From an uncultured virus (IMG/VR IMGVR_UViG_3300020048_000013) (taxonomy: Duplodnaviria; Heunggongvirae; Uroviricota; Caudoviricetes), in the IMG/VR virus record IMGVR_UViG_3300020048_000013: DNA of 64,000 nt; one strand, given 5' to 3'. A program made the translations under genes and the position numbers. Positions 6,342 to 56,834 of the stretch are shown here, one piece after another. The notes below the pieces were generated by a model that had not been told where the DNA came from, did no database searches, and worked only from the letters and a program-made list of their open reading frames with translations. The stretch's first letter is position 1. The number at the start of each line of letters is the position of its first letter.

Positions 6342-7099
6342 ATAATCTCCTTTGTAAATTATCCCAACCATCTAAAGAATCATTATTCAACGATTTTAAA
6401 ATTATTTCATATAATAATTTATAATTAGCTTCGTGACCATAAAAATAAAAAAATGTAGAATGTGCAGTAGACATATATGGATAATTTAAAAAATACTTTT
6501 TGAAATGACTATTATTTTTTAATACAGCATCAATTTCCAATTCGTCTTCAAAAAAATCTTTATAAATCGGATCACCAGAATATATTAAATCAGCATCAAA
6601 CTTACAATCTTTCAGATATTCAACAGAAGAAAAATATTTTGTATAATTCATTTCTTGAACTTTCGACCATACATGTTTGCTCTTTTTTTTATCTGTCATG
6701 ATACTGTTCTCATGCAATATTATTTTTGGAGAAAATGCCAAAACTTTTATTTCATTATTTATTTTATCCTGCAAATATTTTGCTAATAATAATGCAAATG
6801 TTCCAGATTTGGAACTACCAAATAAAAACAATTTATCAAATTTCAAAGTCATAATAGTTTGTAAAATTTCTTCACAAACATCTTCATAATCCAATATCAA
6901 ATATCCCATAACTTCTGGATGATTAGATGCTAAACTTAAATATGATTTATCATGTTGTCTGANNNNNNNNNNGTTGTCTGAAATCCATATCTGGTAATAT
7001 TATTCTATTTACTTTTCTACCAGACAAAAAAATAATTAAATCTTTATGTTTTTCATAATTTATAAGATCATACATTATGGAATTTAAATAATTAATCAT
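6334..7099 (-). CDS. Alpha/beta-hydrolase-like protein; ORF continues across the N gap
   Basis: FGSSKSG nucleophile-elbow-like motif, AFSP, late His; both gap flanks repeat TCAGACAAC and join in frame to ATG at 7099. Confidence 0.6.
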
Positions 7100-12555: not shown

Positions 12556-13080
12556 TTATTTTTCCTTTTTTATATTTTTAACTCTATTATGACATGTATG
12601 CACATTTCCACAATTAGTACAAGTAACACTATTAAAGTCTTTGAATTCTGATTCCTTGCCTTCTACTAAAGGATATCCCATTAAAGTAGTAATGCCGCCT
12701 TCCGACCCGCACTTAGGACAACATTCGTGTTCTTTATAATAAACATCCATATATTCGTGATATTTCTTCGATGATTCTTCGGTATGTTGTAACGGAATAT
12801 AAGGAGCATAAAATACTCCATGATCGATATTATTATCCTTGCCACGAACTACATTTAATTTTTTTAATTCCAAATCCATTTCATACTGAAGAATTTTAAA
12901 TAATCCTTCTTGAGCATTCATACCATGAACGGCTTTCAAATCCTGATACATTTCGTCAGTATAAACCATTTTTAATTTACGAATTGGTCTGAATGTAATC
13001 CATCTCCAAAAACGATATAATTTCGTTTTTATCAATGATACTTTTTCCATTTTTAATTTTATTGTTTTCCATTCATTCAT
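12556..13080 (-). CDS. Miniature gp23 (major capsid)-like protein fused to a zinc ribbon
   Basis: RKLKMVYTDEMYQDLKAVHGMNA and GVFYAPYIPL resemble T4 gp23 RQLKAAYSIELAQDLRAVHGMDA and GIYYAPYVAL; C-terminal CPKC...CTNC. Confidence 0.75.
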   Translation of the reverse strand: MNEWKTIKLKMEKVSLIKTKLYRFWRWITFRPIRKLKMVYTDEMYQDLKAVHGMNAQEGLFKILQYEMDLELKKLNVVRGKDNNIDHGVFYAPYIPLQHTEESSKKYHEYMDVYYKEHECCPKCGSEGGITTLMGYPLVEGKESEFKDFNSVTCTNCGNVHTCHNRVKNIKKEK

Positions 13081-15292: not shown

Positions 15293-15661
15293 TTACTCCT
15301 TTTTTTCATTTTCAATTCTATTTTTTGTATAAATCATGGCACATAAATTAAAACAGACAGCCGCTGCGTGATCTTCGTCATCTTCTTCACAGAAAACCTG
15401 AATACAATGTCTCAATGCACTCGCTTTAAATCTGTCATATTCTTCTTTAGAACAAGCCTTTTCCCAATTTCTTTCGGAATATTTTTCTGCACCTCTACTC
15501 ATAAGAGTAGCCCAACGATATAACAATGTTTCGTTATATGGTTGATTTTCGGGTATAATTAAATCGAATCTGGGTTTATTGTTCTGCGGTTCTCGCATCA
15601 TACCGCTATCATAATACTGTCTCGTGCCATCGTCCTTCGTTTCATACTCTACCATAATCAT
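15293..15661 (-). CDS. dATP/dGTP diphosphohydrolase-like protein (DUF5664-type)
   Basis: KPRFDLI...GAEKYSERNWEK...ALRH...EDHAAAVCFN. Confidence 0.8.
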   Translation of the reverse strand: MIMVEYETKDDGTRQYYDSGMMREPQNNKPRFDLIIPENQPYNETLLYRWATLMSRGAEKYSERNWEKACSKEEYDRFKASALRHCIQVFCEEDDEDHAAAVCFNLCAMIYTKNRIENEKKE

Positions 15662-18141: not shown

Positions 18142-18561
18142 TTATAATTTTTTATTTCTTTTATTCTTCTTTTTTTCAACATTTTCCAAATGTTCTAAAT
18201 TATCATTCAATATATTTATTTTTTTAAGATATTCTTTTTTAAATTTTTTCAATTCTCTAAGCAAAATATTAATTTTTTTTATATCATTTTTAATAAATCT
18301 ATCTGTCTCTGATGTATCGCCATCAATATCGAAATCTAATTTTATATCACTGCTACAATCTTTTATTTTTATATTTGCTATAATTTTCTTTAATCTATTT
18401 TTATTACACAAATTTTTATCTCTACAAGATCCACAAACAAAATTATTATGACATTCTGATATATCAGCTTCCCATATTACCCAAGCAGTCAATTTCTTCA
18501 CCTCCGAATTTAAAAATTGTCTTCCTTGAGACAAATTTCTTTTTAAATATTTTGATTTCAT
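18142..18561 (-). CDS. Basic hypothetical protein (probable start MKSKY)
   Basis: Start overlaps the upstream TGA (ATGA); CxxxxxCxxCxxxxxC. Confidence 0.6.
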   Translation of the reverse strand: MKSKYLKRNLSQGRQFLNSEVKKLTAWVIWEADISECHNNFVCGSCRDKNLCNKNRLKKIIANIKIKDCSSDIKLDFDIDGDTSETDRFIKNDIKKINILLRELKKFKKEYLKKINILNDNLEHLENVEKKKNKRNKKL

Positions 18562-19469
18562 AATTCTTTTATCCCCACAATAGCAACTATTCCTACAAAT
18601 AAAGATAATATTAATATGAAAGTACATTTACAAAATTTCCAAATACTAACTAACCATTCAGGAATATCACCAACATCAGGAACTTCTCCACTCAAAAGTT
18701 TTATAATTTTACTATACAAATAATCATATGCTTCTTGTACTTTATCTCCAGTAATATTAAAAATTTCTATTAAAGATTGTAAAAAATCATCTACTATCTT
18801 CACTACAGGATTAAATAATTTAGCAAACCATTCTATCATTCTATTTAAAGCATCAGTCATTTCTGTTAAATCCAGATTAATGAATGGAAGCAGTATATCC
18901 AACAATTCTGTTATATACTTCATCACAAATCCAATAGAAGCTGTTAAAATCTTCACAATCATTCTGATAATAGTACTGGAATCGAATGTCTTCCAAAAAT
19001 CATCTTCTGCCAATTCTCTATATAATTTATTAGGGGGAAGCATTATGGGTATTGACGGCAGTCCGACGATAGGAAGTAGAATAGTGAAAGGTCCAAGAGG
19101 AATTGGTAAATTTTCATAAAAATCCAAACAGGTTTCCATTATCCATTTTCCAGCATCTGAAATAAATTCTATCAACCAGTTATATGCTGCGGTAATATCT
19201 TCAATTATTTCATTCAGTCCTTCCCAATCTCCTTCCAAAGCATCGGCTATAGCACCAGGAATTGATGATATTTTAGCATACGGAATAGCCATTTTAGCAA
19301 AAGGATATCCAAAAATTTTCAATAAAGCATCTTTTATGATACCATAATAAACACTCAAAAATCCTGGGGATGTAATACTTACATCTTCTAATCCCAGTCA
19401 GCCACCACATTCTGAAAATGGTTCTGTTAAAACAGGATTTATTATTGTATCAATCGAAGTTTCAAGCAT
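18558..19469 (-). CDS. 303-aa helical protein with in-frame TGA at codon 24 (C-G-G-U); candidate selenoprotein or readthrough gene
   Basis: ATG 19469 overlaps the upstream stop and is in frame with the 266-aa ORF; single TGA at 19400-19398 followed by a hairpin. Confidence 0.65.
19364..19397 (-). promoter_or_regulatory. SECIS-like hairpin immediately 3' of UGA
   Basis: CUGGG-AUUAGAA-GAUGUA-[AGUAU]-UACAUC-CCCAG; loop starts 18 nt after UGA with GU at loop positions 2-3. Confidence 0.6.
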
Positions 19470-19994
19470 TTTTATTAATCTCTATATTATCGTAACATAC
19501 ATTTTCTTCTATAAAAGGAATAGGAAAACTTACAGGACCAGCAAAACTATCTATAGCCACATCCATTACTGCTTTTAATTTAGTAAAACTAACAACTTTT
19601 TCAAATACTGGAGTATCTCCGCCATTAATATTAATCTGTAATTTTCCATTTTTAATTTTTATAATCATATNNNNNNNNNNCCATCCACAATGATAAGAGA
19701 ATCACCAACACACTTATCAATATTACCTGTAGTAGTCTTTGCTGAATAAGTTCCTGTAGGAAGTATTTCATAAACTTTAAATCTCTTGTCTGTATTATCT
19801 ATAATTCGAATAATACTATCTCCATCTAAATATTCAGATGCTATAACTTTTGTGTATTCAGATTTCTCTAGTTTATGATTAACTGGTTCTAATATATCTT
19901 TTTCTTTATTTAAATAACCATTAATCTTTTTCAATGGTTCATTTGTAATTGAATTTTGAACTACAGATGATATATTAGATGATTTACTTTCCAT
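19462..19994 (-). CDS. gp5 C-terminal (spike)-like protein; two track ORFs probably one gene split by the N gap
   Basis: IRIIDNT...YEILPTGTY...VGDSLIIVDG.MIIKIKNG resembles the start of the gp5 beta-helix. Confidence 0.5.
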
Positions 19995-30684: not shown

Positions 30685-31938
30685 TTAACCTTTTAATATT
30701 TNNNNNNNNNNTTTTGAATATATATCGTCTGCAGTATATTCTTCATTGGCATATCTTTTCGTTAAAGGATTGCCGTCTGCTCTATATAAATCCCAAGTAT
30801 ATCTTTTTCCGTCTGGGAACGTGCTGGTATTGGCTAACATAAGTTCTCCATTCACTTCTCTAGCTTTATCCATAGTATCAAAATGAGGGAGACATTTTAC
30901 TTCTTCTGCTGTTGCGTGAAAATTATAATATAGATTCCCTTCATATCTACCAATTTCTTTATATCCTTTATTTTTCATATAATCATATATAAAAGATTTT
31001 TCGTTATAATCTGCTGTTCTTAATTGATCTACAAGAGGAGTTTTTGCACCATCTAAATTCAACCATAATATAGCTCTGCCTCTCAGTTCTCCATTTTTCT
31101 TCAGTCTCATTTCAATCATTCTAACATCATCGTTTTTATCCCAAACTTTTATCATTTCGTCAGCAAGGCCATGTCTCATTACATCAACCCAACAAGACCC
31201 TCTTGCGTATTCTATAAATACTTTTTTATAATTTTTCGTTTCTGTTATATCATATGGAGATGGTCTTTCTATATCAACTTTATTATCTATAGCATATTTT
31301 AATTCGTTTATCATTCGTTCTACTTCTTTATCTGATCCGTCAGTCAAGATATTTGGGAATAAATATTTCAACATTTTTCCGACAGGTAATTTTACGTGAA
31401 CAAATTTACCAACACCTTCTAGTTTAGCATCCATCAATCCTTTATCTTCAGCATATAATAAAGTCACCAATGGTTTGTTATTAATTTTGACTTCTTGAGG
31501 AATAACATATCCATTTTTTTTCAGAATTTCTTCTATTTTTGGTTCTATCTGCACAGACTCGTTTAACATAGAAAAACTTTCATTCATTTCTTCGGTTTCA
31601 AATTCTGCTTCTATTTCTTCTTCTCCCTCTGCACAATTTTGACACATTTCTCCACCATCAGTCATCACCATTTCGGAATTGTTGAATGTATTTCCGCAAT
31701 TAACACAAACAAATTTAGAAAAAGAATTTTTATAATCTTCGGTATCTTTACAATAATTACAAATATTGTATAATTCTCCATCTATTTTAAATTCTTCAAT
31801 GTTTTCATCTGGAACCATGCCGTGATGTATATCGCATTTTTTATAAAATTCGATACAATTACTACACACATCTCCTCCGTCAGTAGTGTTTTTATTTGTA
31901 GAATATTTTCCACAATCTAAACATTTAAATTTTTCCAT
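30685..31938 (-). CDS. Paralogue-array protein: N-terminal CxxC repeats plus variant domain
   Basis: MLNES, GSCW, GRAILW, LPHFDT; TATAAATA at 31961-31968 upstream. Confidence 0.75.
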   Translation of the reverse strand: MEKFKCLDCGKYSTNKNTTDGGDVCSNCIEFYKKCDIHHGMVPDENIEEFKIDGELYNICNYCKDTEDYKNSFSKFVCVNCGNTFNNSEMVMTDGGEMCQNCAEGEEEIEAEFETEEMNESFSMLNESVQIEPKIEEILKKNGYVIPQEVKINNKPLVTLLYAEDKGLMDAKLEGVGKFVHVKLPVGKMLKYLFPNILTDGSDKEVERMINELKYAIDNKVDIERPSPYDITETKNYKKVFIEYARGSCWVDVMRHGLADEMIKVWDKNDDVRMIEMRLKKNGELRGRAILWLNLDGAKTPLVDQLRTADYNEKSFIYDYMKNKGYKEIGRYEGNLYYNFHATAEEVKCLPHFDTMDKAREVNGELMLANTSTFPDGKRYTWDLYRADGNPLTKRYANEEYTADDIYSKXXXXILKG

Positions 31939-32024: not shown

Positions 32025-34115
32025 TTAAAATTCCTTAATATTAATACCCATATCGAAATTGACAATATTTATTTGGATATGTTTAATTACTCTGTTTGGT
32101 TGTAATCTAATATCAAGAACAAATTCGTTTGCGTTAATTGTTTCTGCTGTATTATTAGTTTCGTCACAAATCAACTTATAATCATATAATCCACCAATCT
32201 TTTTAAAATATTCAAATATTCCTTTTATTTTATAAAGAGTAGAGTTTCTTGTGGCTTCATTATTAAATTCAAAGAAATTGCTTCTCAAAACTGTTTTCAA
32301 TAAATGTTTTATTCTAATAACCATTCTTCTAACATTTGCTTCTTTGACTATTTCGTCAAGAGTAGTGTTGGTCATATATTCGAATAAATAATTTTTATCT
32401 TCAGTATTATCATATATTATTGCATTTATACCATTATAACTTAATAAATCTTGATTGATTGTTGAATCAAACAATAATTTTGATTGGTTATTGAATTCGC
32501 CTCTATTATAACCTGCACACGGGCTTTGTACTCCGAATATAGAATCGTTTCTACACATCATACCAGCTATATCTCCAGCGACACTAACCCAACGATATTT
32601 GTCGTTATATTTGTCATAGAATTTCTTCATTTGTCCTACTGCGAAAGTAAAACTATTAAATTCTGTTAATGCTCCGATGGAAGTATCTGTTCTTTTGTTT
32701 CCTAAATCAGAAACGACTTCTGTATTAGTATCTCCTTCTGACAATCCGATAGTAGATCTCGTCAAACCAACAATCGCAAGAGACATTTCTGTTTCTTTTG
32801 ATATTAATGGCATTGCGTTGAGATATCCTGATAATAATGAAGAATCTCCACAATCATGACCAATAAGAATTTCTGGAATAAGAAATCCGTTCGGACCAAA
32901 AACACTACTAGCAGATTCGTATAAAGTATCATAATCCACAATGTTGCTATAATCAGTATTGTTGTCTAATATTATATTTGTATATACAGAACTATTTACA
33001 TCAGCATGAAGCAGAGTATTAGTACATCCGTTACTCTTACAATATATATATTTGCTATATTTATTTATGTTAGTGTCTATATAATTACTTTTACCATTAG
33101 ATTGTTTTGATGTCGATGTTAAAGAATTTACAAAAGTCTCTACTATTTCAAAATAATCTTCTTTATTTTTTTTCAATACAATCAAACCAATTTCATTTTG
33201 AGTAAAATCTGGCTTTCTTGGAAGAATATATTCAAAAGTAAATGGGTCATAATTGCTATCATATAGAGGATTATCCATATATCTAACAACAGAATTTGTT
33301 ATCATTCCGCTCGAATTTCTTTTTTGTAATATAACGTCGGCTGTGGTTATTGTACTATCAACAGTCCACGATCCGTCATCAGATTCGAAAGTATATGCCA
33401 ATTTTTCGCTTTGTATATATACTCTATCTCCATCTGATATAACATCTGTCGAGAAAGTCCAATATCCAGTAGAACTAGTTGTTTTTGTTAAATAATATAC
33501 ATTATATGTTCCATCATCAACAACGACTCTATCTCCATTACTAAAAGAAGTTACATCACTTGGTAAGTTATTAACTTCGCTTGGATCATCTACATAAATT
33601 GTTTTAACTGCTAAAGTATTATCAAAAATATCATCTTTGGAAATTGATTGATAATATGAAGTTTCGTCTCTACATATTAAAATGGATATATCGTCTAAAC
33701 TAGTTACATATTTTTTATATATATTTAAATATCCACTAGATATATCCAAATCATCTAATGTCTGTAATGCTATTGTTTCGTTATATAAATCACCCAGAAC
33801 ATTATCGTATGTTATACTTCCTGATTGTATAGACATATAAGCATTCTCTGTAGTAGTTGCAAGAGGTCTTACAACATATAAACTGGAAGCATATTTTAAA
33901 TATCCAGAAGCATTAAACCAATCTATATAATTATAATCTGTAGGATATCCAAATATTTTTATTAATTCCGATTCAGAAGATATTTTAATCGGGGTGTTGG
34001 CAGGACCATAATCAGATTTTAACAACATTCCAACAGATGTTTCTATATTAATAGTAGCAGTTTTTTCCGCCAAAACTTGTTTTTCGTTAAATTCCATACT
34101 GCTGGCATATTTCAT
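32025..34115 (-). CDS. Tail sheath protein (gp18-like), paralogue 1
   Basis: FGYP, YDKYNDKYRWV, AGYNRG, NVRR, FEFNNEATR, ICDETNNT, LQPNRVI. Confidence 0.93.
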   Translation of the reverse strand: MKYASSMEFNEKQVLAEKTATINIETSVGMLLKSDYGPANTPIKISSESELIKIFGYPTDYNYIDWFNASGYLKYASSLYVVRPLATTTENAYMSIQSGSITYDNVLGDLYNETIALQTLDDLDISSGYLNIYKKYVTSLDDISILICRDETSYYQSISKDDIFDNTLAVKTIYVDDPSEVNNLPSDVTSFSNGDRVVVDDGTYNVYYLTKTTSSTGYWTFSTDVISDGDRVYIQSEKLAYTFESDDGSWTVDSTITTADVILQKRNSSGMITNSVVRYMDNPLYDSNYDPFTFEYILPRKPDFTQNEIGLIVLKKNKEDYFEIVETFVNSLTSTSKQSNGKSNYIDTNINKYSKYIYCKSNGCTNTLLHADVNSSVYTNIILDNNTDYSNIVDYDTLYESASSVFGPNGFLIPEILIGHDCGDSSLLSGYLNAMPLISKETEMSLAIVGLTRSTIGLSEGDTNTEVVSDLGNKRTDTSIGALTEFNSFTFAVGQMKKFYDKYNDKYRWVSVAGDIAGMMCRNDSIFGVQSPCAGYNRGEFNNQSKLLFDSTINQDLLSYNGINAIIYDNTEDKNYLFEYMTNTTLDEIVKEANVRRMVIRIKHLLKTVLRSNFFEFNNEATRNSTLYKIKGIFEYFKKIGGLYDYKLICDETNNTAETINANEFVLDIRLQPNRVIKHIQINIVNFDMGINIKEF

Positions 34116-35053: not shown

Positions 35054-36877
35054 TTATTTTTCTTTATAACTCATTGTAAAACTTTCACCACTAAAATCGC
35101 CATAAAAATTTACTACAATAGTTTCGATCACCTGGTAATAACTAATAGTTATAATTATATTTATAATTTTAGTTTCTTCATCAATCTCTATATCAAGCAC
35201 ATAACTATTTATATCTACGTTGCATAAAGAATCGAGATAAATTTTCAGAACACTATATATTCTATCTTTATATCTTTCCAACGGCGGTTTGTAAGTTATG
35301 TCATTATTATTTATAATATTAGAAACATATTTTTCAATTTTATTACTAATAAGTGAATTAAATCCGTATTTAAATTTAGCCTTATTCGGTTCGCTTGTGA
35401 AATAATATTTCCAATTATTATTTAAAATATTAATTTTATTTTCTTTTAATAAAATTTCGTCTTCAAATCCGTATAGATTAATATAACTTCCGTCAGAATA
35501 ATCTATAACTTTATCAGTTATTATTGTTCCAGCCACATCTCCAGCAACTGGTATATATCTCGTTTTATCATTATATTCGTCATATTGTTTTTTGAAATTT
35601 GCGATTATTAAATTATTTCTGTTAAATATTGTATATCCCGTCGGATTTTCTGCATAAATTCCAAAATCGTTTATTATATCAGTCAATGTCGTGTAATTAT
35701 TCCACATTGCGGTAATACACATGCAAGAAGTATCTATACATTTTGTTGGAATATAATCCATACTACTATCTATTTCGCAATTTAATATCATATTAAAATC
35801 ATCCATATCAATTTCATCTACAGTCGCTTCCCAATCTGCTGGAAGAACTGATATGAAATTATAAGGAGTGTCGTCAAACATCAAAGTATTATTTATTATA
35901 GAATAATTTGTAGTATTTGCCGAACCGCTAAAATATTTTATGTAAATATGATTGGAATTAGTGTTTATATAAGTATAATAATTATCAGCATCTTCTACTG
36001 TGCTTGCTATATATTTTTCAATCAAAGAGAATAATCCAGCAGAGTTCTTTTTAAATACAAACACAGCAAATTCGCCATTATCGAAATCTGGAGTTATATT
36101 AATGAGTTGATAACATTTTTTTATCTCCCCGTCATTGTCTTGTATACCAGAATAAATTTGTCTTATGTAAGTATGAATATCATAATCTATGTAAGTATAA
36201 GTATCTAATCTTTCAACGAATAAAATTCCGCTTTTATAAATTTCTGTTTCTTCATCTTCTATATAATAACTTGCACCTTCTGATATAGATATTATACTCC
36301 AAGACAAGTTATCTGAAGGGTCGTATGTAGCAATAGCCAAATTTCCTTCCAATCCAGACCATTCACCAATAGCACCATCTGGTATTATATAAGTATCTTG
36401 GTCTTCTGGATCTGACGGTGCTTCTGTTAAAGAACGACTTATAACTTTATCTACATATTCATTAGTCAGAGGGTTTTTCCACGATGATATATTGTCACAT
36501 ATAACAACCGCAGTATCTTCTTCACTATTACAATATCTTTCTATTACGCTAAAAACACTATTTGCATCACTTGGCAAGTTATCAACATCAGCAACAGTGC
36601 TGTTATAAAAATCTGTAATAGAATTTTTAACTGGAATAACATCATCATAAATATCGAGCATTTTGCTTTCTGATAGAACAGAAAGAGGTCTCATGACATA
36701 AATAACATTTTGATATTTTAAATAATTATATATACAAAACCATGATTTATAATTTTCTTCTTGAGGTAATCCGAATTTTCTTATTAAATCGTAGGAGTTA
36801 TAAACGGCAATAGGGGAAACTGATTCCCCTACATTGCTATTCAATAATGATACTGTTATTCTGTCTTTTAATTCCAC
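35054..36877 (-). CDS. Tail sheath-like protein, divergent paralogue 2
   Basis: KFGLP, NYLKY...VMRP, YDEYNDKTRYIPVAGDVAG; shortened C-terminal domains. Confidence 0.8.
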   Translation of the reverse strand: MELKDRITVSLLNSNVGESVSPIAVYNSYDLIRKFGLPQEENYKSWFCIYNYLKYQNVIYVMRPLSVLSESKMLDIYDDVIPVKNSITDFYNSTVADVDNLPSDANSVFSVIERYCNSEEDTAVVICDNISSWKNPLTNEYVDKVISRSLTEAPSDPEDQDTYIIPDGAIGEWSGLEGNLAIATYDPSDNLSWSIISISEGASYYIEDEETEIYKSGILFVERLDTYTYIDYDIHTYIRQIYSGIQDNDGEIKKCYQLINITPDFDNGEFAVFVFKKNSAGLFSLIEKYIASTVEDADNYYTYINTNSNHIYIKYFSGSANTTNYSIINNTLMFDDTPYNFISVLPADWEATVDEIDMDDFNMILNCEIDSSMDYIPTKCIDTSCMCITAMWNNYTTLTDIINDFGIYAENPTGYTIFNRNNLIIANFKKQYDEYNDKTRYIPVAGDVAGTIITDKVIDYSDGSYINLYGFEDEILLKENKINILNNNWKYYFTSEPNKAKFKYGFNSLISNKIEKYVSNIINNNDITYKPPLERYKDRIYSVLKIYLDSLCNVDINSYVLDIEIDEETKIINIIITISYYQVIETIVVNFYGDFSGESFTMSYKEK

Positions 36878-37765: not shown

Positions 37766-38725
37766 TTAATCACTAATTTTATAAATTTTAAATTCGAAAC
37801 TATATCCATTATCTATACACGATTGTTTCTTTAAAATATTTTCTGTTAATTCTTTATTGTACGTATATTCTGATTTAACTTCAATTATTTTATTATCTTT
37901 TGGTATATAAAAATCTGGATAGTATCTATGCTTTTTGTCATCAATAAAAATATACCATAATTTACCTATCACATTTTGTGTGGGATGAATGATGATATTT
38001 TCTTCTCTGTTACCCAATAGAAAATATTCATTTAAAAATTTAAATTCATATCCTTGAATTTTTATAATTTTTCCACTTGGTAATATATAATCGTGTTTTG
38101 TAAATCTTTTAGTCTGTGATTTATTAAAAATTTCTTCACATTGCATTGGATAATCTGTATTATATTTTTTTCGCGATGTTTTTATTTTTTTGTTTTGATG
38201 AACAAATGATTTACTTATATTATCTACACCATATCTATCTATTAATGTATTTTTTCGTTTTTCATATACGGAATTTAATTGTCCAGTATAATCTACATTA
38301 TATTTTTCATTACATGTCTGTTTGCTTTTATTTTTTCCTTTTTCTGATTGTAATGGATAATCAACGCCAAAATTTTTATTATTTGTAATTTTGACTTTTT
38401 CTTTATATTCTGGCGTTTTCGAATATGAATCTACATTATATTTTTTAATAAAAGACAATTTTCTTTTTTTCACGATATTATATTTTTCATCATTAGTTTT
38501 ATTTTTATATGCGTCTGAAATTTTTTTCCTAAATTCCATTACACATGAAGGATTATCTACTCCATATTTTTCTTGACATGTTTTTATAGTTTTTACTGTT
38601 CTATTTTTAAAAAATATAAATTTACACGAATCAGAGCAACACGGAGTTGCTCTTTTATCCGATTCGAATGGTTTATCGCATATTTTACATTTTTTTTTAA
38701 AAATCATAATTTTATTCGATTTCAC
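37766..38725 (-). CDS. Putative homing endonuclease (KYGVD-type repeats plus PD-(D/E)xK domain)
   Basis: Repeated KYGVDN/KYNVD modules; QGYE...YYPDFYIPKDNKIIEVKS. Confidence 0.8.
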   Translation of the reverse strand: MKSNKIMIFKKKCKICDKPFESDKRATPCCSDSCKFIFFKNRTVKTIKTCQEKYGVDNPSCVMEFRKKISDAYKNKTNDEKYNIVKKRKLSFIKKYNVDSYSKTPEYKEKVKITNNKNFGVDYPLQSEKGKNKSKQTCNEKYNVDYTGQLNSVYEKRKNTLIDRYGVDNISKSFVHQNKKIKTSRKKYNTDYPMQCEEIFNKSQTKRFTKHDYILPSGKIIKIQGYEFKFLNEYFLLGNREENIIIHPTQNVIGKLWYIFIDDKKHRYYPDFYIPKDNKIIEVKSEYTYNKELTENILKKQSCIDNGYSFEFKIYKISD

Positions 38726-40940
38726 TAATGTTTATACCCATATCGTAATTGATAATATTAACTATAATATGTTTAATTACTCTATTAGGTTGTAGTCTGA
38801 CATCAAGAACGAATTCGTTAGAATTAATTCTTTCAGCAGTATTATTAGTTTCATCACAGATTAAAAGATAATCATACAATCCGCCAGATTTTTTCAATGC
38901 TTCGAAAAATGCTGTAATTTTGTAAAGAGTAGTGCTTCTAGTACTTTCGTTATTAAATTCAAAATAATTACCTTTCAACACTCTTTTTAAGAATTGTTTA
39001 ATGAATATATTCATTCTTCTGACATTTGCCTCTTTTACTATAAGGTCTAGTTGTGTATTAGTTAAGAATTCAAATAGTATATATGCCTGTGTATCATAAT
39101 CAAAAATTATTTGATTTATTCCGTTTTTAGACAATTCGTCTTGGTCATAAGTTCCAGTGCTTAATAATTTAGAGAAGTTATCATAACCGCCTCTATTATA
39201 TCCTGCCAAAGCACTCTGAGGTCCGTACATCAAATCGTTTCTTGTTAAAAGACCAGCCATATCCCCAGCAACAGGAACCCAACGATATTTATCGTTATAT
39301 TTATCGTAGAAATATTTCATTTGTCCGAATGACATCGTATAAGAGTTAAATTCTGTTAATGCTCCGATAGAAGTATCGTCTCTTTGATTTCCTAAAGAAT
39401 CTATAACAGATTGATTAATTGTTTCTTCGTTTTCTCCAATATATTCTTCGTGATTATATAATGAAACGATAGCAACGCTAAATCCTGTATCATTTGCTAT
39501 AACAGGCATCGAATCGAGATATCCTGATGATCTACCGTTATTAAATCCGATAAGAAGTTCTGGGTTCATCAATCCATTAAGTCCGAAAATTTCGGCAGCT
39601 TCTTCTATTGCAGTAGTTCCTAAAGCTCCAGTCGCATAACTACTCATATCTCTGCCATTCCATGCTGTAGAACCAGTCCAAGGAGCAGAATAATCGACAT
39701 TAGAAACATCGTCTATTGTCATATCTGTTATTGATGAAAGAGTTGTAGAGAAATCGTATTCGTCGTCATTTACTCCTCTATCAAGAGCTTCTGCGATACA
39801 ATATACATATTTACTATTTTTATTGATTACATTTGCTATATATTTTGATAAACCAGCAGTTGTTTTTGCTGTAATATCAAAACTTCCAACAAAAGTTTCT
39901 GCTAATTGCCAATATCCTTGAGTATCTTTTTTAAATATTGCAACACCACATTCATAATTGATGAAATCTGGAGTTGGTTTTATGATATCCTGATAATTTA
40001 CAGGAAGTTTAGTCGAACTGTTATATAATGAACTTCCAAGATATTGAGGAACGACATATTGAACTGTGTTAGATGCTATAACTTTTATTTTAGTTACTGC
40101 GTTATTTACTGGTTGAACAGTTTTTGCTGTAAAAGTTTTAGTTCCAGCTGTTACTGCGTCTAAATTACCAATACAATTATTAACTCCGTCTTCCAAATAA
40201 AATAAAGTATCTGCTGTTACCGCAATAGTTGTATTTACCCAAACAGCAGTAGCGGCATTTTTATTTAAATACCAAATTGTTCCTGATGCTGCTGATATTA
40301 TAGAAAATCCGTGTCCAATTGATCCGCCATAAGCAGAACATGTAACTGGACCATAATTTTCTGCTTGTACTAATGTGGGAACACTTGCACTAACTGTTGC
40401 TGTTACTATATTGCTATTAATATATACGGCAGTTTCAGTAAATATAGGAGAAGCATAATCTCCTTCTTTTGAGCATACTGTTACTGCGATATCATCTTTA
40501 TTAGATATTGTTTTAGCAAAAAATTCTATTTTATCTCCGCCTGTTACTGTTTCGGTATCAAGCAATGCTTCAGCTTTGTCTGGATTATACATATTAGCTT
40601 TTGTTCGAGCGTTAATTGTAACATCATCTTCTGATGGATCATATTCTACACCAACACCAGCATTAGTCCAAGCAGTATTTACGGGTCTAATTACATAAAG
40701 CTCGTTTGCGTATTTTAAATATCCAGCAGCATCAAACCAAGCTTTATAGTTGTATTCTGTAGGATATCCAAAAGTATCTACTAATTGATTTTCTGATTTT
40801 ATATTTATTGGTATATTTCCGTATCCGCTATTTGCAGTTAATATCATACCAGTTCTTGTAGTACCAAATGCTTCTCTTTTAGGTAATCTTACTTCTGATT
40901 CCGTAAAAGTCATACTTGGTGCATAATGTTTATTTGCCAT
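38712..40940 (-). CDS. Tail sheath protein (gp18-like), paralogue 3, probably the major one
   Basis: HYAPSMTFTE N-terminus, RWVPVAGDMAGL, AGYNRG, NVRR, CDETNNT. Confidence 0.95.
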   Translation of the reverse strand: MANKHYAPSMTFTESEVRLPKREAFGTTRTGMILTANSGYGNIPINIKSENQLVDTFGYPTEYNYKAWFDAAGYLKYANELYVIRPVNTAWTNAGVGVEYDPSEDDVTINARTKANMYNPDKAEALLDTETVTGGDKIEFFAKTISNKDDIAVTVCSKEGDYASPIFTETAVYINSNIVTATVSASVPTLVQAENYGPVTCSAYGGSIGHGFSIISAASGTIWYLNKNAATAVWVNTTIAVTADTLFYLEDGVNNCIGNLDAVTAGTKTFTAKTVQPVNNAVTKIKVIASNTVQYVVPQYLGSSLYNSSTKLPVNYQDIIKPTPDFINYECGVAIFKKDTQGYWQLAETFVGSFDITAKTTAGLSKYIANVINKNSKYVYCIAEALDRGVNDDEYDFSTTLSSITDMTIDDVSNVDYSAPWTGSTAWNGRDMSSYATGALGTTAIEEAAEIFGLNGLMNPELLIGFNNGRSSGYLDSMPVIANDTGFSVAIVSLYNHEEYIGENEETINQSVIDSLGNQRDDTSIGALTEFNSYTMSFGQMKYFYDKYNDKYRWVPVAGDMAGLLTRNDLMYGPQSALAGYNRGGYDNFSKLLSTGTYDQDELSKNGINQIIFDYDTQAYILFEFLTNTQLDLIVKEANVRRMNIFIKQFLKRVLKGNYFEFNNESTRSTTLYKITAFFEALKKSGGLYDYLLICDETNNTAERINSNEFVLDVRLQPNRVIKHIIVNIINYDMGINISEIE

Positions 40941-42921: not shown

Positions 42922-45258
42922 TTATAATTCCACTTCGTTAAATCCAATCGTTTGTTTCTCTATATTAATTTCTATGATAATCTGTCTTATTACTTGATTT
43001 GGTTGTAATAAAACTTGTATATGTAGTTCGTTATTGTTTATAACTTCTGGAGGATTGTTTGTGCTGTCACATAATACTACACCATTATTTATGGCATTTG
43101 CTGACATCAATTCCATTAATATATAATTTACTTCATTAGATATAGTTTTTCTTAAATAAGAAGTATTATATTCAAAAATATATGGTTTTAATAAAACTTT
43201 TAATCTTTGTTTAAATTCATTAATAGTTCTTCTTATATTTAATCTTTTTGTTAAAAGTTCTTCGTCGTTATACATTAATATATCATATAAGTAATATTGT
43301 TCATCTGTATAATTTTTTATCACATGATTTATGCTATGATAACATAATAAATCAAGGTTGTCGTCACTTACATTTGTATATATCATTTTTGTGTTATTTT
43401 TTATCGGAGTTGTCTTGAATCCTGCGCATGATGTATATGGATTTTTTGTAATATCTTCCAAAACATAAATACCAGCAATATCTCCAATTATAGGAATCCA
43501 TATAAATTTTTCTAAAAATTCAGAATAACAATATTTCATATTATCATATACTATCGTATAAGTTCCAGTTATTGTTATATATTGAGGATAATTTTTTAAT
43601 CCGAATTGACTTAAAATAACAGTGGTCATATCAGAATATCCGTCCAAATAATCAGTTTCGTCCCATGGAGATATTATTGCTATACAATCAGACCTTTCTT
43701 CAGATATACTGGGACTCAAGTTCATTGTATATGAAATTCCATCATATAATTCTATACCTAATATATATTTTATGGATATATTATTTGTATTTCTATAAAA
43801 ATTTGTTGCCGTTTCAAATGTAGTATAATCGATTAAATTCGTATAATCTGTCGTTATGCTATCATATGTCAACAAACAATCAAGTATTGAATAGTTTGTC
43901 ATCACAATGTCTTTTGCTGTTTCTAACGCTGTTAAATTTCTTTTAAAATAAATATATTTTGAATTTTGATTTATAATATCTTCACAATAATTTCTTTTAT
44001 ATAAAGCATTTAAAGTACTGTCTTTTGAAAAAGATGTTTCAAATACTTCTAAAAGAGAAAACAATCCGTTTATTTTTTTGAATACTAATAATATGAAATT
44101 TTTAGAAAAATCTACATACTTATTTACTATTTTCGAAAATGTTTTTATTGTAGTTCCAGATTGTATTTTGGCATCATATACAACTCTCGTGCATGTTTCA
44201 TATAATAATGTTTCATGATTTCCTGATATTATATGTTTATACTGAACATCATCATATGTTATATATCCGCTGCCACCAGTAGTTACTATTATCGTTTTTT
44301 CTTCGGATTTCAAATATCCTGCTGTTACCGATGATGACGACCAACAAACAGAATTATCATAAAACAGGACCGTTCCCGTATTATCATATAAAGACAAATC
44401 TTCTGTCAATGTAATAACTACATCATCTCCGACAGTAGCAATTGATGATATAGAAACGGATGTATTATTTAAATCTTTTCTTTTCGTATTTCTAAAATAT
44501 AATTCGCTATAATTTTCGTATTCAGAAGGATCAATTTCCGATGGATCGTTTGCTATTGTTATTACTGTATAATTATTTACTCTGGAAACAGTAAATTCTT
44601 TTTCTATTAATGTATCCAATAAGTTAACCGAATAATTTCCGCTATTATTTAAAATGAATTGTTGATATAAATACATATCTGATGTTAAGTTTTCTGGAAG
44701 AGCTGTTACTATTTTTGTAAAAACAGGAACATCGTTTTCAGTAGTTATAACACTTTCATATTCGTCTTGTGAAGTACACATAACGACAGCAATATCGTCT
44801 GATTGAGTTATATCACGATTTATAATAGAACAAAAATAATCTTCATCCATTGATATAGAACCCAATGTATTCAAAGCGATATCTTCCGTATACATATTTG
44901 CTTGTTGTATTTGAGTTTTTAGAACTTCTTCTACATCAGAAGGATCGGAAGGATCGTCTATATGTTTGCCTAATTGTAAACCAAAATTAGTCCATGAAGT
45001 ATTGATTACTCTCATTACATTTATATTAGTAACATATCTCAAATATTCATAAATGTTATACCAAGCTTTGTAGTTATATTCTGTAGGATATCCGAATTTA
45101 TTGATAAAATCTACTTGATCGGTTACTACAATATTTTTATTTCCAGGACCCTTCTCTGCAGACAAAAATGCGACTGTATTTGATGTCGGATTAACTTGAG
45201 TAGATGATGAAATTAAATTTTCATATATATTGATGCTTGGTCTTTTTTGTAGTGCCAT
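42922..45258 (-). CDS. Tail sheath protein (gp18-like), paralogue 4
   Basis: RPSINIYE, KFGYP, WIPIIGDIAG, LNIRR, FEYN, LCDSTNNP, LQPNQVI. Confidence 0.92.
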   Translation of the reverse strand: MALQKRPSINIYENLISSSTQVNPTSNTVAFLSAEKGPGNKNIVVTDQVDFINKFGYPTEYNYKAWYNIYEYLRYVTNINVMRVINTSWTNFGLQLGKHIDDPSDPSDVEEVLKTQIQQANMYTEDIALNTLGSISMDEDYFCSIINRDITQSDDIAVVMCTSQDEYESVITTENDVPVFTKIVTALPENLTSDMYLYQQFILNNSGNYSVNLLDTLIEKEFTVSRVNNYTVITIANDPSEIDPSEYENYSELYFRNTKRKDLNNTSVSISSIATVGDDVVITLTEDLSLYDNTGTVLFYDNSVCWSSSSVTAGYLKSEEKTIIVTTGGSGYITYDDVQYKHIISGNHETLLYETCTRVVYDAKIQSGTTIKTFSKIVNKYVDFSKNFILLVFKKINGLFSLLEVFETSFSKDSTLNALYKRNYCEDIINQNSKYIYFKRNLTALETAKDIVMTNYSILDCLLTYDSITTDYTNLIDYTTFETATNFYRNTNNISIKYILGIELYDGISYTMNLSPSISEERSDCIAIISPWDETDYLDGYSDMTTVILSQFGLKNYPQYITITGTYTIVYDNMKYCYSEFLEKFIWIPIIGDIAGIYVLEDITKNPYTSCAGFKTTPIKNNTKMIYTNVSDDNLDLLCYHSINHVIKNYTDEQYYLYDILMYNDEELLTKRLNIRRTINEFKQRLKVLLKPYIFEYNTSYLRKTISNEVNYILMELMSANAINNGVVLCDSTNNPPEVINNNELHIQVLLQPNQVIRQIIIEINIEKQTIGFNEVEL

Positions 45259-45612: not shown

Positions 45613-47925
45613 TTAAAACGGAGTAAATCCTGATCTGAGTTCCCTTTCCTGTATATCTTCTTCCATCATATCAAAAATATCAAAATCTTTCTTTTCTTTT
45701 TTATCTTCCACTATATTCATATTTTTCATTATTCTTTCTAGAACATAATCATTATCATCTCTCAATAAAATATCCAATATATCCTGTTCATTTATAATGC
45801 TCGCAATTTCTTTTTCTACTCCGAAATTTTTATTGATAATTTTCTGAAAAATTTCATGATGATTTTTAATATCATTATGTTCTCCGAGAATATTTTGAAG
45901 CATTATGTCGTTTGATATCGTCAAGAAAAATAACGATGCAATAATAGCCATAACTTTATCGTCTGGTTCTTTGTCTGCTCCAGCATAGCTCTTTCCTTTC
46001 TTTACAAAATTTCCGAGCTGACCGACAGTATCAATATCATAAATCAATAAATTTAAATTATTCGCAATAAGTTTTAAGTTGGCACATCCCAATCTTTTTG
46101 TTTTCATGGTTGTTCTGAATCCAGCAAGCACACTATTTTCCCAATATATATTTTCATATCCCAAATCTTCTAAAGTTCTGTTAGTTTCTCTGCCAGCACC
46201 TTCATTGTTTTCCATAAATATCCAAGCATTATTATAGAATTTTCCAAGTTCGTTTAATATATAAGGAAATTCTCGATATGACATTCCAAATCTTGCCTCA
46301 AATAAACCTACTTGTTTTATAGGAAAAGAAGTCACATCCAATATTTGAAAACTTGTTTCATCACCATCACCAGTTTCTACATTAGTACTTGTATCACATC
46401 CTATTATATATTGATGATTTTTTTCAGGTAAAAAGAACAATCTAATATTTGGTTTATAATCTTTTAATTTTTCTAATCTCGTATTTAGTAAATAATCTAT
46501 ATCGAGAGGTTGTTTATAAATTGTGCTATAATATCTTATAGTATCAGTGCTTAATAAAGATCCGCCCCTACTTTCAAAACTACAGTTATATTCTCGTTCG
46601 AATCTTTGTTCTGCTGGTTCTCCAGTTTCTTTATCGTCACCCAACAATCTGATTGCTAATTTTTTCCATTCTTCATCTCTACCAGGAACCATAGTCCAAG
46701 GAACGAAATAAGGAACATAATCATTTTTCATCGGATGATCTTTATCTAAGTTTGCCTTCCACCAATAATCATAGAAGTGATTTTTTCCGTTTGGAGTACT
46801 TACTAATATTAATTTTGATTCTTTTGATACTGTAATAATAGGTAATGATGATTGAGAAAATTCTCCCCATCCTTTAATAAATGCTGCCTCGTCTATTAAT
46901 AGTATATTGCCAGAAGCACCCCTAGCATTAGATTTTACCTGAATGATTGTTCCATTATCGAATTCTATCGTCGATTTATTCCACTCGACAATGCCCAATT
47001 GAAGTCCATATGGAAGATTTTCAATAGCAATTTTAATTTTTTCCAACACTGCTCTTGCTTCGTCTTTATCTCTACTTACTATAACAACTTTTTTATCTCT
47101 ATTGAATAATGCATACCACACACAAAAAATAGAAACTACTGTGCTGTTATGACTTAATAATCCGTTGGTAAAATATCTTTTTCCATTCTCGACATCAAGC
47201 AAATCATACATTGGTTTCTTTCCACTCAATTTAGTAACAGATAATACTTTATCAGTTCCTTTTTTCGTTATTAATAAATCGCCTTCTTTTATATTTTTAG
47301 CATATTTTACTTTATTTGTTGTTCCATCAAATAGCAAATGATCGTCCGCACATATTAATTTATGATTAACTGTTCTTATTTCATATTTTTCATATGGAAC
47401 AGTTCTTCCAATTCCTCTAAATTTTTGCCAACCAGTATTTGTAAACACTTCGAAATCATCATTTTGTACTATATCTGTAAATTTATCATCGTTTATTGGC
47501 AAATGATGACTGTTTATATTATCAGTTATTCTATCGTAAAATCTTCCAATTTTTATATTCTGTTCTTCTTTACTATACTTATTTCGTATAATAACATGAG
47601 TATTATAATCTACACATTTTCCAGACTGTCTTGACTGCAATATAATATTAAATCTGTTTTTCTGAATTCCTGATAAAATTTCCACTTGATATGGATAAAG
47701 ATCTATTCTTTTCCTTCCTAAATCAGGATGAATATGCCAAAAATAATTATTAGCAAAATATAAAACATCCTGTTCGCATTTTATATATTCTGTTAACATT
47801 TCTTCAGTATAATTTATTTTTACTTTTGCTGCTTTTACATGGGGAATATTTAAATAATTTTTTATTTTCTTTCCATAAGCATCGAGAACCACATCGAGAA
47901 TACTATTTCTTTCATCGTTCATCAA
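45613..47925 (-). CDS. terL: Terminase large subunit (gp17-like) containing an intein
   Basis: LYPYQ, SRQSGK|ST Walker A, LLIDEAAF Walker B, VSTPNG, IGCD, DDKVMA. Confidence 0.96.
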   Translation of the reverse strand: MMNDERNSILDVVLDAYGKKIKNYLNIPHVKAAKVKINYTEEMLTEYIKCEQDVLYFANNYFWHIHPDLGRKRIDLYPYQVEILSGIQKNRFNIILQSRQSGKCVDYNTHVIIRNKYSKEEQNIKIGRFYDRITDNINSHHLPINDDKFTDIVQNDDFEVFTNTGWQKFRGIGRTVPYEKYEIRTVNHKLICADDHLLFDGTTNKVKYAKNIKEGDLLITKKGTDKVLSVTKLSGKKPMYDLLDVENGKRYFTNGLLSHNSTVVSIFCVWYALFNRDKKVVIVSRDKDEARAVLEKIKIAIENLPYGLQLGIVEWNKSTIEFDNGTIIQVKSNARGASGNILLIDEAAFIKGWGEFSQSSLPIITVSKESKLILVSTPNGKNHFYDYWWKANLDKDHPMKNDYVPYFVPWTMVPGRDEEWKKLAIRLLGDDKETGEPAEQRFEREYNCSFESRGGSLLSTDTIRYYSTIYKQPLDIDYLLNTRLEKLKDYKPNIRLFFLPEKNHQYIIGCDTSTNVETGDGDETSFQILDVTSFPIKQVGLFEARFGMSYREFPYILNELGKFYNNAWIFMENNEGAGRETNRTLEDLGYENIYWENSVLAGFRTTMKTKRLGCANLKLIANNLNLLIYDIDTVGQLGNFVKKGKSYAGADKEPDDKVMAIIASLFFLTISNDIMLQNILGEHNDIKNHHEIFQKIINKNFGVEKEIASIINEQDILDILLRDDNDYVLERIMKNMNIVEDKKEKKDFDIFDMMEEDIQERELRSGFTPF
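47146..47616 (-). mobile_element. 157-aa mini-intein in the terminase Walker A motif
   Basis: GK|CVDYNT...CADDH...MYDL...TNGLLSHN|S; too short for a homing endonuclease domain. Confidence 0.93.
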
Positions 47926-55540: not shown

Positions 55541-56833
55541 TTAACAACCACCAGTACTTGGTCCGCCACAGCTACCGCCACCGCCACCTGATCCACCACA
55601 ACTACCTCTCCAATCTTCGGTGCTGCAACTATCAACGAATCCTCCGACATCTTTTTTTAATTTTTTTCTTTTTTTAAATCTTTTCTTTTTAACATCTTCA
55701 TTAATGCCGTTATAATTTTCATTTATTCTATTATAATTAACTTTAAGTTTACCTTCCCAGTCTTTTGTTACTTCTGCATTTTCGTTAATAATTAATTCAT
55801 AAATAGTACCCATTTCCATTACTTTTGAAGGTTCTTCGAGAGATGCTTTCCAAGAAACTTTCATACCTTCAATTAATTGATTTTTAGTACGACAAACAGG
55901 ACAATGATATTCGTTTGATTTATAATTTTCATACATCTTTTCTACATTAGAAGGATCTAATGTGCCATGAGGTTTTCTGAAAAAAACTTGTGATGCACCG
56001 CATTCCTTAGCAAATTTGATATATTTTTCTATATCTTCTTTCGTATTTAAATTTTCATTTAAAACTGCGCTGAATGTAACATCAATACCAACTTTATTTA
56101 ATTCATTTGCAACATTTTTTAATTCGCTTTCTGAAATCATTTTAGATCCAAAAATAGAATCATTAATTTTATCAGAATAGTGATGTCTAGAAATGTTTAC
56201 ATGGTCAATCTTGCCTTCTAATTTTGAAACAAATTCCGAGATTTTATAACCGTTAGTAGTTAGAACTGAATGAGGAAAAGTATCCTTGTCTATAAGATTT
56301 AAAACTTCATTTAAATAAGGACTCATTGTAGGTTCTCCGCCCGTCAAGCTCAATTGATAAAATTGTGATGGTAGAGATTCTAAAACGTTACCTAATTTTT
56401 GTATATAATTACTACATCCAGTCGATTTTTTCCAAAAACAAAAATTACACTTGCCATTACATCCACCAGGAAGAACTATAGATAAATTTGGATTCGTTAT
56501 AGTATTCTCAAATAAATCTTGTTCGTCTAAAATAGTTTCATTCATAACACCATCATTATTATTAAACAAATTTTGTTCATCTAATTCCTTCATCTTTTCT
56601 ATAAATTTCTCTTTTGATAATGACCATGATTGTCCTTTATCTGGACCGTTTATGATTTCAAAGGTCATCATATTAGGATCATATTTACGATATCCCCAAA
56701 ATTTAACTCTTCTTGCACCAATGCTAAGTTCTTCACCATGTTTCGGAAATTTAATCTTAGCTTCATCTAAAATAGTTTCTTCGCAATTTTCATTCAGAAT
56801 TATTTCTTTATAAACTTCGTTTAAGTTGCTCAT
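55541..56833 (-). CDS. Radical SAM protein with putative head-targeting N-terminus and Cys/Gly-rich C-terminal tail
   Basis: CNGKCNFC (CxxxCxxC), LTGGEPT, LTTNG, NISRHH; probable start MSNLNEVY. Confidence 0.9.
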   Translation of the reverse strand: MSNLNEVYKEIILNENCEETILDEAKIKFPKHGEELSIGARRVKFWGYRKYDPNMMTFEIINGPDKGQSWSLSKEKFIEKMKELDEQNLFNNNDGVMNETILDEQDLFENTITNPNLSIVLPGGCNGKCNFCFWKKSTGCSNYIQKLGNVLESLPSQFYQLSLTGGEPTMSPYLNEVLNLIDKDTFPHSVLTTNGYKISEFVSKLEGKIDHVNISRHHYSDKINDSIFGSKMISESELKNVANELNKVGIDVTFSAVLNENLNTKEDIEKYIKFAKECGASQVFFRKPHGTLDPSNVEKMYENYKSNEYHCPVCRTKNQLIEGMKVSWKASLEEPSKVMEMGTIYELIINENAEVTKDWEGKLKVNYNRINENYNGINEDVKKKRFKKRKKLKKDVGGFVDSCSTEDWRGSCGGSGGGGGSCGGPSTGGC

Positions 56834-56834
56834 A

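Follow-up and report, generated by a model that had tools for sequence, protein, structure and literature searches.

A candidate selenocysteine codon in a phage tail gene

The 64,000-nucleotide (nt) stretch of DNA analysed here (the window) comes from an uncultured virus of the Caudoviricetes (IMG/VR record IMGVR_UViG_3300020048_000013) and carries on its minus strand a candidate gene of 304 codons (18558..19469) with one internal TGA, at codon 24 (19398..19400). The best-supported reading of this codon, and one that we consider rather probable, is that its UGA is a selenocysteine (Sec) codon, directed by a selenocysteine insertion sequence (SECIS), in a phage tail protein. The reading is favoured because the codon stands on a conserved cysteine close to a second cysteine with the frame conserved on both sides, and because the stretch behind it is the best conserved one and holds a hairpin with the right geometry and loop, in which rare codons are used. 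We also lean slightly towards the wider claim that this would be the first bacteriophage gene known to encode a selenoprotein, moreover a structural gene, in which a single recoded UGA would give a tape-measure-like tail protein its N-terminal C-x-x-U.

The frame begins with an ATG (19469-19467) overlapping the TGA stop (19464-19462) of an upstream open reading frame (ORF) of 68 amino acids (aa; 19462..19668, minus strand), as ATGCTTGA. After the ATG it runs through 23 codons ending in C-G-G, the TGA (19400-19398) and 279 further codons to a terminal TGA at 18560-18558. The order is MLETSIDTIINPVLTEPFSECGG, TGA, LGLEDVSITSPGFLSVYYG and then the 266-aa ORF which under translation table 11 starts at a TTG (19356..19358, codon 38). 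The internal TGA is followed by a C (UGAC), and the TGT at 19407..19409 encodes Cys21, the first cysteine of the C-G-G-U motif. A first-pass annotation of this DNA had described an ATG coupled to the upstream stop and an in-frame UGA in a CxxU context running into the 266-aa ORF, and both features are present. Gene callers gave shorter products, of 266 aa and 244 aa, where the whole frame would give 303 aa. A programmed frameshift was rejected, as the reading frame is unchanged after the TGA.

Homologues and the cysteine column

A phmmer search against 1.84 billion representative sequences revealed 13 homologues at E <= 0.001, 10 of them at E <= 1e-10. Six full-length relatives align from query residues 6-14, that is from upstream of the TGA, and at the TGA column a cysteine is found in eight of the nine homologues covering it (P0005-P0012), within the context C-[LIF]-G-[ILV]. 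The query first used carried C as a stand-in for U, and a realignment with codon 24 given as X served as control. The placeholder did not bias the alignment, because the X version returned the identical cysteine column, again in eight out of nine. In most relatives this is a lone conserved cysteine at the position of codon 24, and in P0007 the motif reads C-x-x-C. P0003, at 45% identity the nearest relative, starts with a V only at query residue 62-68; as its contig of 3717 base pairs (bp) probably ends within the gene, it is uninformative on the N-terminus.

Among the codons of this phage that a single step separates from TGA, cysteine codons account for only 13.8%, so a random nonsense TGA would arise from a cysteine codon in only ~14% of cases. 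The apparent pairing of Sec with Cys at this column is the classical signature of a selenoprotein gene.

Other searches added little to the family. A word-indexed protein search returned the target protein alone (called at 244 aa) and, with a profile, one further known member. No homologous loci were found in viral contigs (queries P0001, alignment A2 and P0007) or in metagenome and genome contigs (alignment A2), exact or IUPAC DNA patterns gave no match in viral or metagenome contigs, and tblastn of P0001, P0006 and P0009 against the phages collection gave none either. A cellular counterpart of the gene was not found in the protein searches, with phmmer or in the genome contigs.

The TGA in contigs from other samples

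A TGA inside an otherwise open frame may also result from an error in sequencing or assembly, or from gene decay with a recently acquired inactivating mutation, and the comparison with contigs from other runs bears directly on this. Runs X1 and X2 stem from a single aquatic study and represent two of its samples, and X3 belongs to a freshwater study from another year; in X4 next to none of the stretch is present. One contig from X1 (record 6, 19118-19495) and one from X2 (record 13, 19212-19447) span codon 24 with 0 differences. Read depths are low (3.3-4.8) and X1 or X2 may be the very sample from which the window was assembled, both of which leave room for an artefact. The X3 run, on the other hand, yielded two diverged relatives aligned without gaps, record 19 (19346-19492; 24 differences in 147 nt, ~84% identity) and record 20 (19346-19443; 8 differences in 98 nt, ~92% identity). 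They differ from the window at 19395, 19401, 19405 and 19406 but not at 19398-19400, so that the TGA is kept in both. Neither a frameshift nor a further stop was found across the 147 nt of the relatives, and the frame behind the TGA is open for 279 codons and conserved, which speaks against a dead gene. Assembly error and recent private mutation are removed as explanations because contigs of two samples and two diverged relatives all carry the TGA. The read support at 19398-19400 asked for in the first-pass annotation is thereby in place. The artefact and dead-gene reading is largely refuted by this comparison, and we regard it as very improbable.

The substitutions in record 19 fit the target frame only. 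Out of 16 changed codons in that frame 6 are synonymous, as compared with 0 of 14 in one of the other frames and 3 of 16, with stop codons, in the remaining one. The synonymous changes include P12, V13, L14, P17 and F18, of which P17 and F18 are family-conserved. C21 and G23 are unchanged and G22 is replaced by S, giving the motif C-S-G-TGA. When the two sides of the codon are compared, 2 differences are found in the 22 scoreable nt after the TGA and 19 in the 62 nt before it (Fisher p = 0.05).

The hairpin downstream of the TGA

A 34-nt two-stem hairpin (19364..19397), a candidate bacterial SECIS (bSECIS) element, begins at the first base after the TGA, and the 40 nt after the UGA fold with -11.6 kcal/mol. 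In the lower stem (CUGGG/CCCAG) 19397-19393 pairs with 19368-19364, followed by an asymmetric internal loop of 7 nt. The upper stem-loop (19369..19385) is 17 nt long, begins 12 nt after the UGA and consists of 7 bp (GAUGUAA/UUACAUC, 19385-19379 with 19375-19369) and the apical loop GUA. This loop stands 19 nt after the UGA, or 18 nt after it as AGUAU if the closing A-U pair opens; the two-stem hairpin reported in the first-pass annotation is present.

The bSECIS consensus of Zhang and Gladyshev, as summarised in the Fig. 2 legend of a 2026 review (PMC13188914), consists of an apical loop of 3-9 nt, an upper stem of 4-16 bp and a distance of 16-37 nt between UGA and loop, together with a G at the first or second position of the loop, mostly with G or U after it, and a minimum free energy (MFE) of <= -7.5 kcal/mol. 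The hairpin falls within all four constraints, with the loop GUA, 7 bp, 19 nt from UGA to loop and an MFE of -11.6 kcal/mol (40 nt) or -10.3 kcal/mol (within 60 nt). The SECIS-like character ascribed to it earlier therefore agrees with the published bacterial model. An equally stable fold in the following 40 nt is found for 5 of the 1516 TGA triplets on the minus strand and for 0.38% of 9116 background 40-mers, and codon 24 is the sole one of the 1516 that combines a folding energy <= -11.6 kcal/mol with the SECIS-like features (40-nt test, first version of the criteria). Mononucleotide shuffles match the observed stability in 21 cases out of 2000. Two rare codons make up the lower stem, CTG with 2.2% of the Leu codons and TCC with 4.6% of the Ser codons, the rarest for these two amino acids. 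In both X3 relatives the 5' arm of the upper stem is unchanged and the leading GU of the loop is kept, with GUA changed to GUG in record 19.

The hairpin also enters a different explanation, in which an old nonsense mutation, TGT to TGA at the cysteine codon, split the gene in an ancestor of the lineage. Ribosomes would then translate a leader ORF of 23 codons, terminate at the UGA, melt the hairpin and start anew at TTG 19358 (266 aa) or ATG 19292 (244 aa), with a product devoid of the N-terminal Cys region. As TGT makes up 85% of the Cys codons, the TGA is one transversion away, and a weak AGGA located 3 nt before the TTG, within the 3' arm of the hairpin, would permit coupling. The 266-aa and 244-aa products are exactly those of the gene callers, the cysteine can be lost, judging from the homologue P0004, and persistence of the TGA in the relatives is not unlikely under neutrality. 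A restart product would however lose the family-conserved motifs C-[LIF]-G-[ILV] and P-G, and codons 25-32, which would go untranslated, are the best conserved part of the X3 comparison; the reading gives no account of this conservation. The leader frame moreover retains family-conserved residues through synonymous changes, the 3-nt spacer after the AGGA is short and TTG is a weak start. Taking both sides together we consider a split gene with restart to be unlikely.

The use of TGA in the window

When analysing the stop codons of the 65 minus-strand ORFs of at least 90 aa, TAA was found in 51, TGA in 13 and TAG in 1, and several of the TGA stops sit in ATGA overlaps, in line with the earlier remark that TGA is a normal stop elsewhere in this DNA. 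No in-frame TGA was found in the 63 other ORFs of the window, the sheath, tube and terminase genes included, and all of their 212 Trp codons are TGG (212/212). A scan for single TGAs joining long open frames gave two cases in the window, codon 24, flanked by 27 open codons before and 279 after it, and a TGA at 13107, which lies upstream of an ATG start. Neither a tRNA with the anticodon UCA nor a tRNA-Sec was found within the 64-kilobase (kb) window, which carries a tRNA-Met, two tRNA-Glu and a transfer-messenger RNA (tmRNA).

Reassignment of TGA across the whole genome, as in code 4 or 25, or a recoding of late genes through a phage suppressor tRNA, would suit the AT-rich genome, with its G+C content of about 28%, and a phage that bears tRNA genes. 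It is contradicted by the many ORFs ending in TGA, some of them as ATGA overlaps, by the strict use of TGG for Trp and by the lack of a suppressor tRNA in the window, so that next to no likelihood is left for it. Within the window both forms are excluded, as TGA ends 13 of the 65 ORFs and no other in-frame TGA occurs.

Readthrough of the UGA without selenium is a different matter, as the evidence for a continuous frame is the same as for Sec. At low frequency the codon would be read either by a near-cognate tRNA for Trp or Cys or by a dedicated tRNA that has the anticodon UCA and carries Cys. The hairpin together with a weak UGA-C context would stimulate this, and the expression of a tail protein needed at low copy number would be throttled. 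In E. coli a C after the UGA gives the weakest stop context, and readthrough of UGA is established for phage Qbeta. The lack in the window of a tRNA-Sec or of any Pfam match to a sel gene would also suit such a readthrough. On the other hand, the codon lies exactly on a conserved cysteine in C-x-x-U, a hallmark of Sec and unlike a Trp-type site, the hairpin spacing and the G-U at the start of the loop match the bSECIS model, and a tRNA with a UCA anticodon is missing from the window. Sequence alone cannot separate readthrough of this kind from Sec insertion, but with these observations in mind we judge it quite unlikely.

A model for selenocysteine insertion and the points that weigh against it

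In the reading we prefer, selenocysteine insertion, ribosomes would enter the gene by coupling to the stop of the small upstream ORF and translate the first 23 codons. At the UGA-C the hairpin would hold SelB, the Sec-specific elongation factor, with its Sec-tRNA, and SelB would deliver Sec in competition with release factor 2, giving a product with a C-x-x-U pair near its N-terminus. The host would supply the Sec machinery, or part of it would be encoded in the remaining 133 kb of the phage genome. Recoding of this kind would be inefficient, which a protein required at few copies per virion may tolerate or even profit from.

Several observations weigh against this model. P0004 (40% identity) has Ala or Asn at the TGA column and keeps a Cys three residues earlier; it is the closest full-length homologue and yet lacks the cysteine of the column. 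Persistence of the TGA in only two relatives is weak evidence of selection, since at the 31% divergence upstream of the codon three bases would by simple arithmetic stay unchanged by chance about 1 time in 3. The SECIS model is loose and of low specificity, as 39 of the 1516 TGA triplets in the window (2.6%) pass all four constraints with a 60-nt look-ahead, 13 of them with a more stable fold. Local composition may explain the fold, as dinucleotide shuffles of the local 71 nt fold equally well (z 0.37, 125/200) and of 5000 sequences resampled with synonymous codons 192 are at least as stable as the one observed, a p of only 0.038. In record 19 the change of CUG to CUC (19395) breaks one G-C pair of the lower stem and takes the 40-nt fold from -11.6 to -5.5 kcal/mol; in this calculation only the listed changes were applied, and for both relatives the list stops short of the 3' arm, which is ~31 nt or less from their contig ends. 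A compensating change for this pair would turn the family-conserved Pro35 into Arg. A search of Rfam with 19250-19480 at E <= 10 returned chance matches and none to a SECIS family; according to the available part of a preprint on Actinomarina, Rfam covers bacterial SECIS elements poorly.

As to the machinery, sel genes were absent from the Pfam matches of the 65 window ORFs (E <= 1e-4, or 0.01 for 15 neighbours) and a tRNA-Sec, which the first-pass annotation had suggested looking for in the phage, is missing from the window as well. These searches cover 64 kb of a contig of 197,135 bp, of which ~133 kb lies outside the window. A virion protein is also an unusual context, as known bacterial selenoproteins are mostly redox enzymes, according to the sections available of two reviews (PMC9312934, PMC13188914). 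The earlier proposal that the gene depends on host Sec insertion or on programmed readthrough thus holds in part: the read support and the cysteine of the homologues speak for it, and the broken lower-stem pair in record 19 speaks against it.

The encoded protein

With moderate confidence the gene can be said to encode a tape-measure-like tail protein, helical and 303 residues long. When compared with PHROGs, the target protein weakly matches the tape measure families phrog_1535 (4.9e-05) and phrog_4200 (1.9e-04). Of 11 family members 7 match phrog_4200, and further tape measure families are matched, the best at 9.4e-08 to phrog_5493. No other ORF of the window matches a tape measure family at the thresholds used. 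Pfam holds no family for the target, and family members match Baculo_PEP_C (3/11, best 1.7e-04) and DUF7217 (3/11, best 0.039) weakly.

An AlphaFold2 model built on the 11-sequence alignment (mean predicted local distance difference test, pLDDT, 74.9; predicted template modelling score, pTM, 0.66) proposes long helices, one beta hairpin and a C-terminal hydrophobic helix with a nearly invariant Cys282, the region of residue 24 being of low confidence. The C-terminal helix, residues ~271-303 according to the alignment and 271-303 in the model, is encoded by 18561..18659. A fold search of the model against PDB and BFVD gave no match at E <= 0.001, and the ESM Atlas scores for the table-11 ORF (<=0.80) were uninformative.

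The likeness to phage tail tape measure proteins (PHROGs 1535, 4200 and 5493) consists of weak but repeated profile matches, long helices with a C-terminal hydrophobic helix, and a position after two small ORFs and downstream of the sheath and tube genes. Unlike these proteins the target has only 303 residues, its E-values are weak, and it has no fold match in PDB or BFVD and no Pfam family. The layout differs too in that several large genes lie between the target and the tube gene; six ORFs of 208-1096 aa stand between the target gene and the sheath and tube genes. The neighbouring proteins of 1096 aa and 1025 aa match no family, and the description of the gene as lying beside a spike-like gene found no support.

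Tail assembly chaperone genes usually precede the tape measure gene. This position is here occupied by the 68-aa ORF and, upstream of it, a 109-aa ORF (19665-19994, minus strand). The family searches gave no match for the 68-aa ORF, and a chaperone role may be suggested from position only.

Comparison with known systems

The closest parallel is found in bacterial selenoprotein genes with a SECIS inside the ORF, such as fdhF of E. coli, which like the target have an in-frame UGA where homologues have Cys and a stem-loop directly after it; in the target the loop begins with GU and all four constraints of the bSECIS consensus hold. According to the parts available of a review, the essential part of the E. 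coli fdhF SECIS is a 17-nt upper stem-loop located 11 nt from the UGA, and an unpaired lower region costs only ~25% of the readthrough (PMC8659212). The upper stem-loop of the target has the same length, 17 nt, and begins 12 nt after the UGA as compared with 11 nt. Unlike the bacterial genes the target is located in a phage, appears to encode a helical virion component and not an oxidoreductase, and lacks a bulged U in the upper stem.

Sec decoding is well established in cells and is known from two poxviruses. Viral selenoproteins in the literature searched are the glutathione peroxidases of poxviruses, homologues of which are described for molluscum contagiosum virus and fowlpox virus in the available text of PMC8310308. 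In these viral genes the UGA is redefined as Sec by the host machinery, as is proposed for the target, and the fowlpox gene carries its SECIS within the coding sequence (PMC8310308), where the candidate element of the target is located too. Poxviruses differ in being eukaryotic viruses with eukaryotic SECIS elements and host-captured genes for known selenoenzymes.

Among phages, some are known that recode a stop codon, reading TGA or TAG as sense in their late genes. They share with the target a stop codon within a late structural gene of a large phage, but in the target a single codon in 64 kb is concerned and TGA is a stop in 13 of 65 ORFs. For huge phages, tRNA-Sec genes have been predicted and some of these phages have been suggested to join in Sec decoding or to encode selenoproteins (PMC10747093). 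As far as the available text goes, that study reports tRNA predictions and names no selenoprotein gene, and the present case is the reverse, a candidate gene without a tRNA-Sec in the 64 kb.

A phage gene shown or proposed to encode Sec was not found in the literature searched, either by phrase or among the titles and abstracts listed, subscription journals and supplements being outside its scope. Phages go unmentioned in the available text of the reviews on prokaryotic selenoproteomes (PMC9312934, PMC13188914), of deep-Sep (PMC12013277) and of the Global Ocean Sampling (GOS) survey (PMC2398784), and the same sections of the two reviews do not contain the word "virus" either. As to possible hosts, the available part of the preprint describes Actinomarina, an abundant AT-rich aquatic lineage, as having Sec machinery, and Pelagibacter as lacking selC, which bears only on the plausibility of a host.

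If the reading is true, the selenoproteome would extend to phages and to a non-enzymatic, virion-associated protein, and phage reproduction would be tied to a trace element and to a recoding factor of the host. Assembly or infection would be contingent on the host, through its selenium status and its SelB, or on genes for Sec components located elsewhere in the 197-kb genome. A switch from Cys to Sec would have arisen within a small, phage-only protein family, whose conserved N-terminal cysteine would be chemically important in an uncharacterised tail protein. The tRNA-Sec genes predicted in some huge phages would gain a purpose, and gene callers would be expected to shorten such phage genes, as here (244 aa and 266 aa as compared with 303 aa).

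Genomic context

The window is about 23-32% G+C and gene-dense on the minus strand, and a cluster look-up placed the target protein on the contig of 197,135 bp. Family searches identified the small and large terminase subunits, tail tube, tail sheath, a polynucleotide kinase and homing endonucleases. When the sheath was searched by tblastn, 2469 records matched, mostly T4-type phages, and the best matches among named phages, myoviruses of Vibrio, Stenotrophomonas and Campylobacter, have 25-28% identity. Because the sheath matches are distant and mostly of T4 type, the window is taken to be part of a large, novel and distantly T4-like myovirus.

Next to the candidate selenoprotein gene, the ORF 18142-18627 (minus strand), listed from an ATG at 18627, overlaps its 3' end by 70 nt. 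An in-frame ATG at 18561 makes an ATGA overlap with the terminal TGA of the target and is the more likely start, giving 139 aa. Three runs of N, each exactly 10 N long, are found in the window (6963-6972, 19671-19680 and 30702-30711), and the second one falls within the last part of the 109-aa ORF, shortly before the 68-aa ORF begins.

The tail sheath gene (32025-34115, minus strand) belongs to a module in which 42922-45258, 38712-40940, 35054-36877 and 32025-34115, all on the minus strand, comprise three clear sheath paralogues and a fourth ORF that is less clearly sheath-like (4.7e-09). The three clear ones match phrog_23 at 2.7e-37, 1.1e-49 and 5.6e-49, several per phage being unusual, and a homing endonuclease gene (37766-38725) is located between the paralogues. 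The ORF of the terminase large subunit (45613-47925, minus strand) is long, 770 aa, and its residues 174-221 give a sub-threshold match to Pfam Intein_splicing (E 6e-06; 26.6 bits, the cut-off being 35.8), a hint of an intein or of what remains of one. Far from the head genes, an ORF of 174 aa (12556-13080, minus strand) matches only ~40 positions of the profile for Gp23, the T4 major capsid protein (PF07068, 7.4e-12; phrog_138, 3.5e-10) and may be a fragment of a capsid gene or a copy of a small domain.

A full-length tmRNA gene is found at 14-359 on the minus strand (Rfam RF00023, 121.6 bits), for which ARAGORN gives the tag peptide ANSYRAVA*. Close to it, on the same strand, are the genes for tRNA-Met and two tRNA-Glu(UUC) (631-702, 821-895 and 1840-1913), and an ORF for an HNH endonuclease (932-1732) lies among the tRNA genes. 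Two auxiliary genes on the minus strand were also seen, one for a radical SAM protein at 55541-56878 (PF04055, 6.3e-13) and one, ORF 15293-15661, for a small protein that matches the dATP/dGTP diphosphohydrolase N-terminal domain (PF18909, 3.4e-12), a family linked to modified bases in phage DNA.

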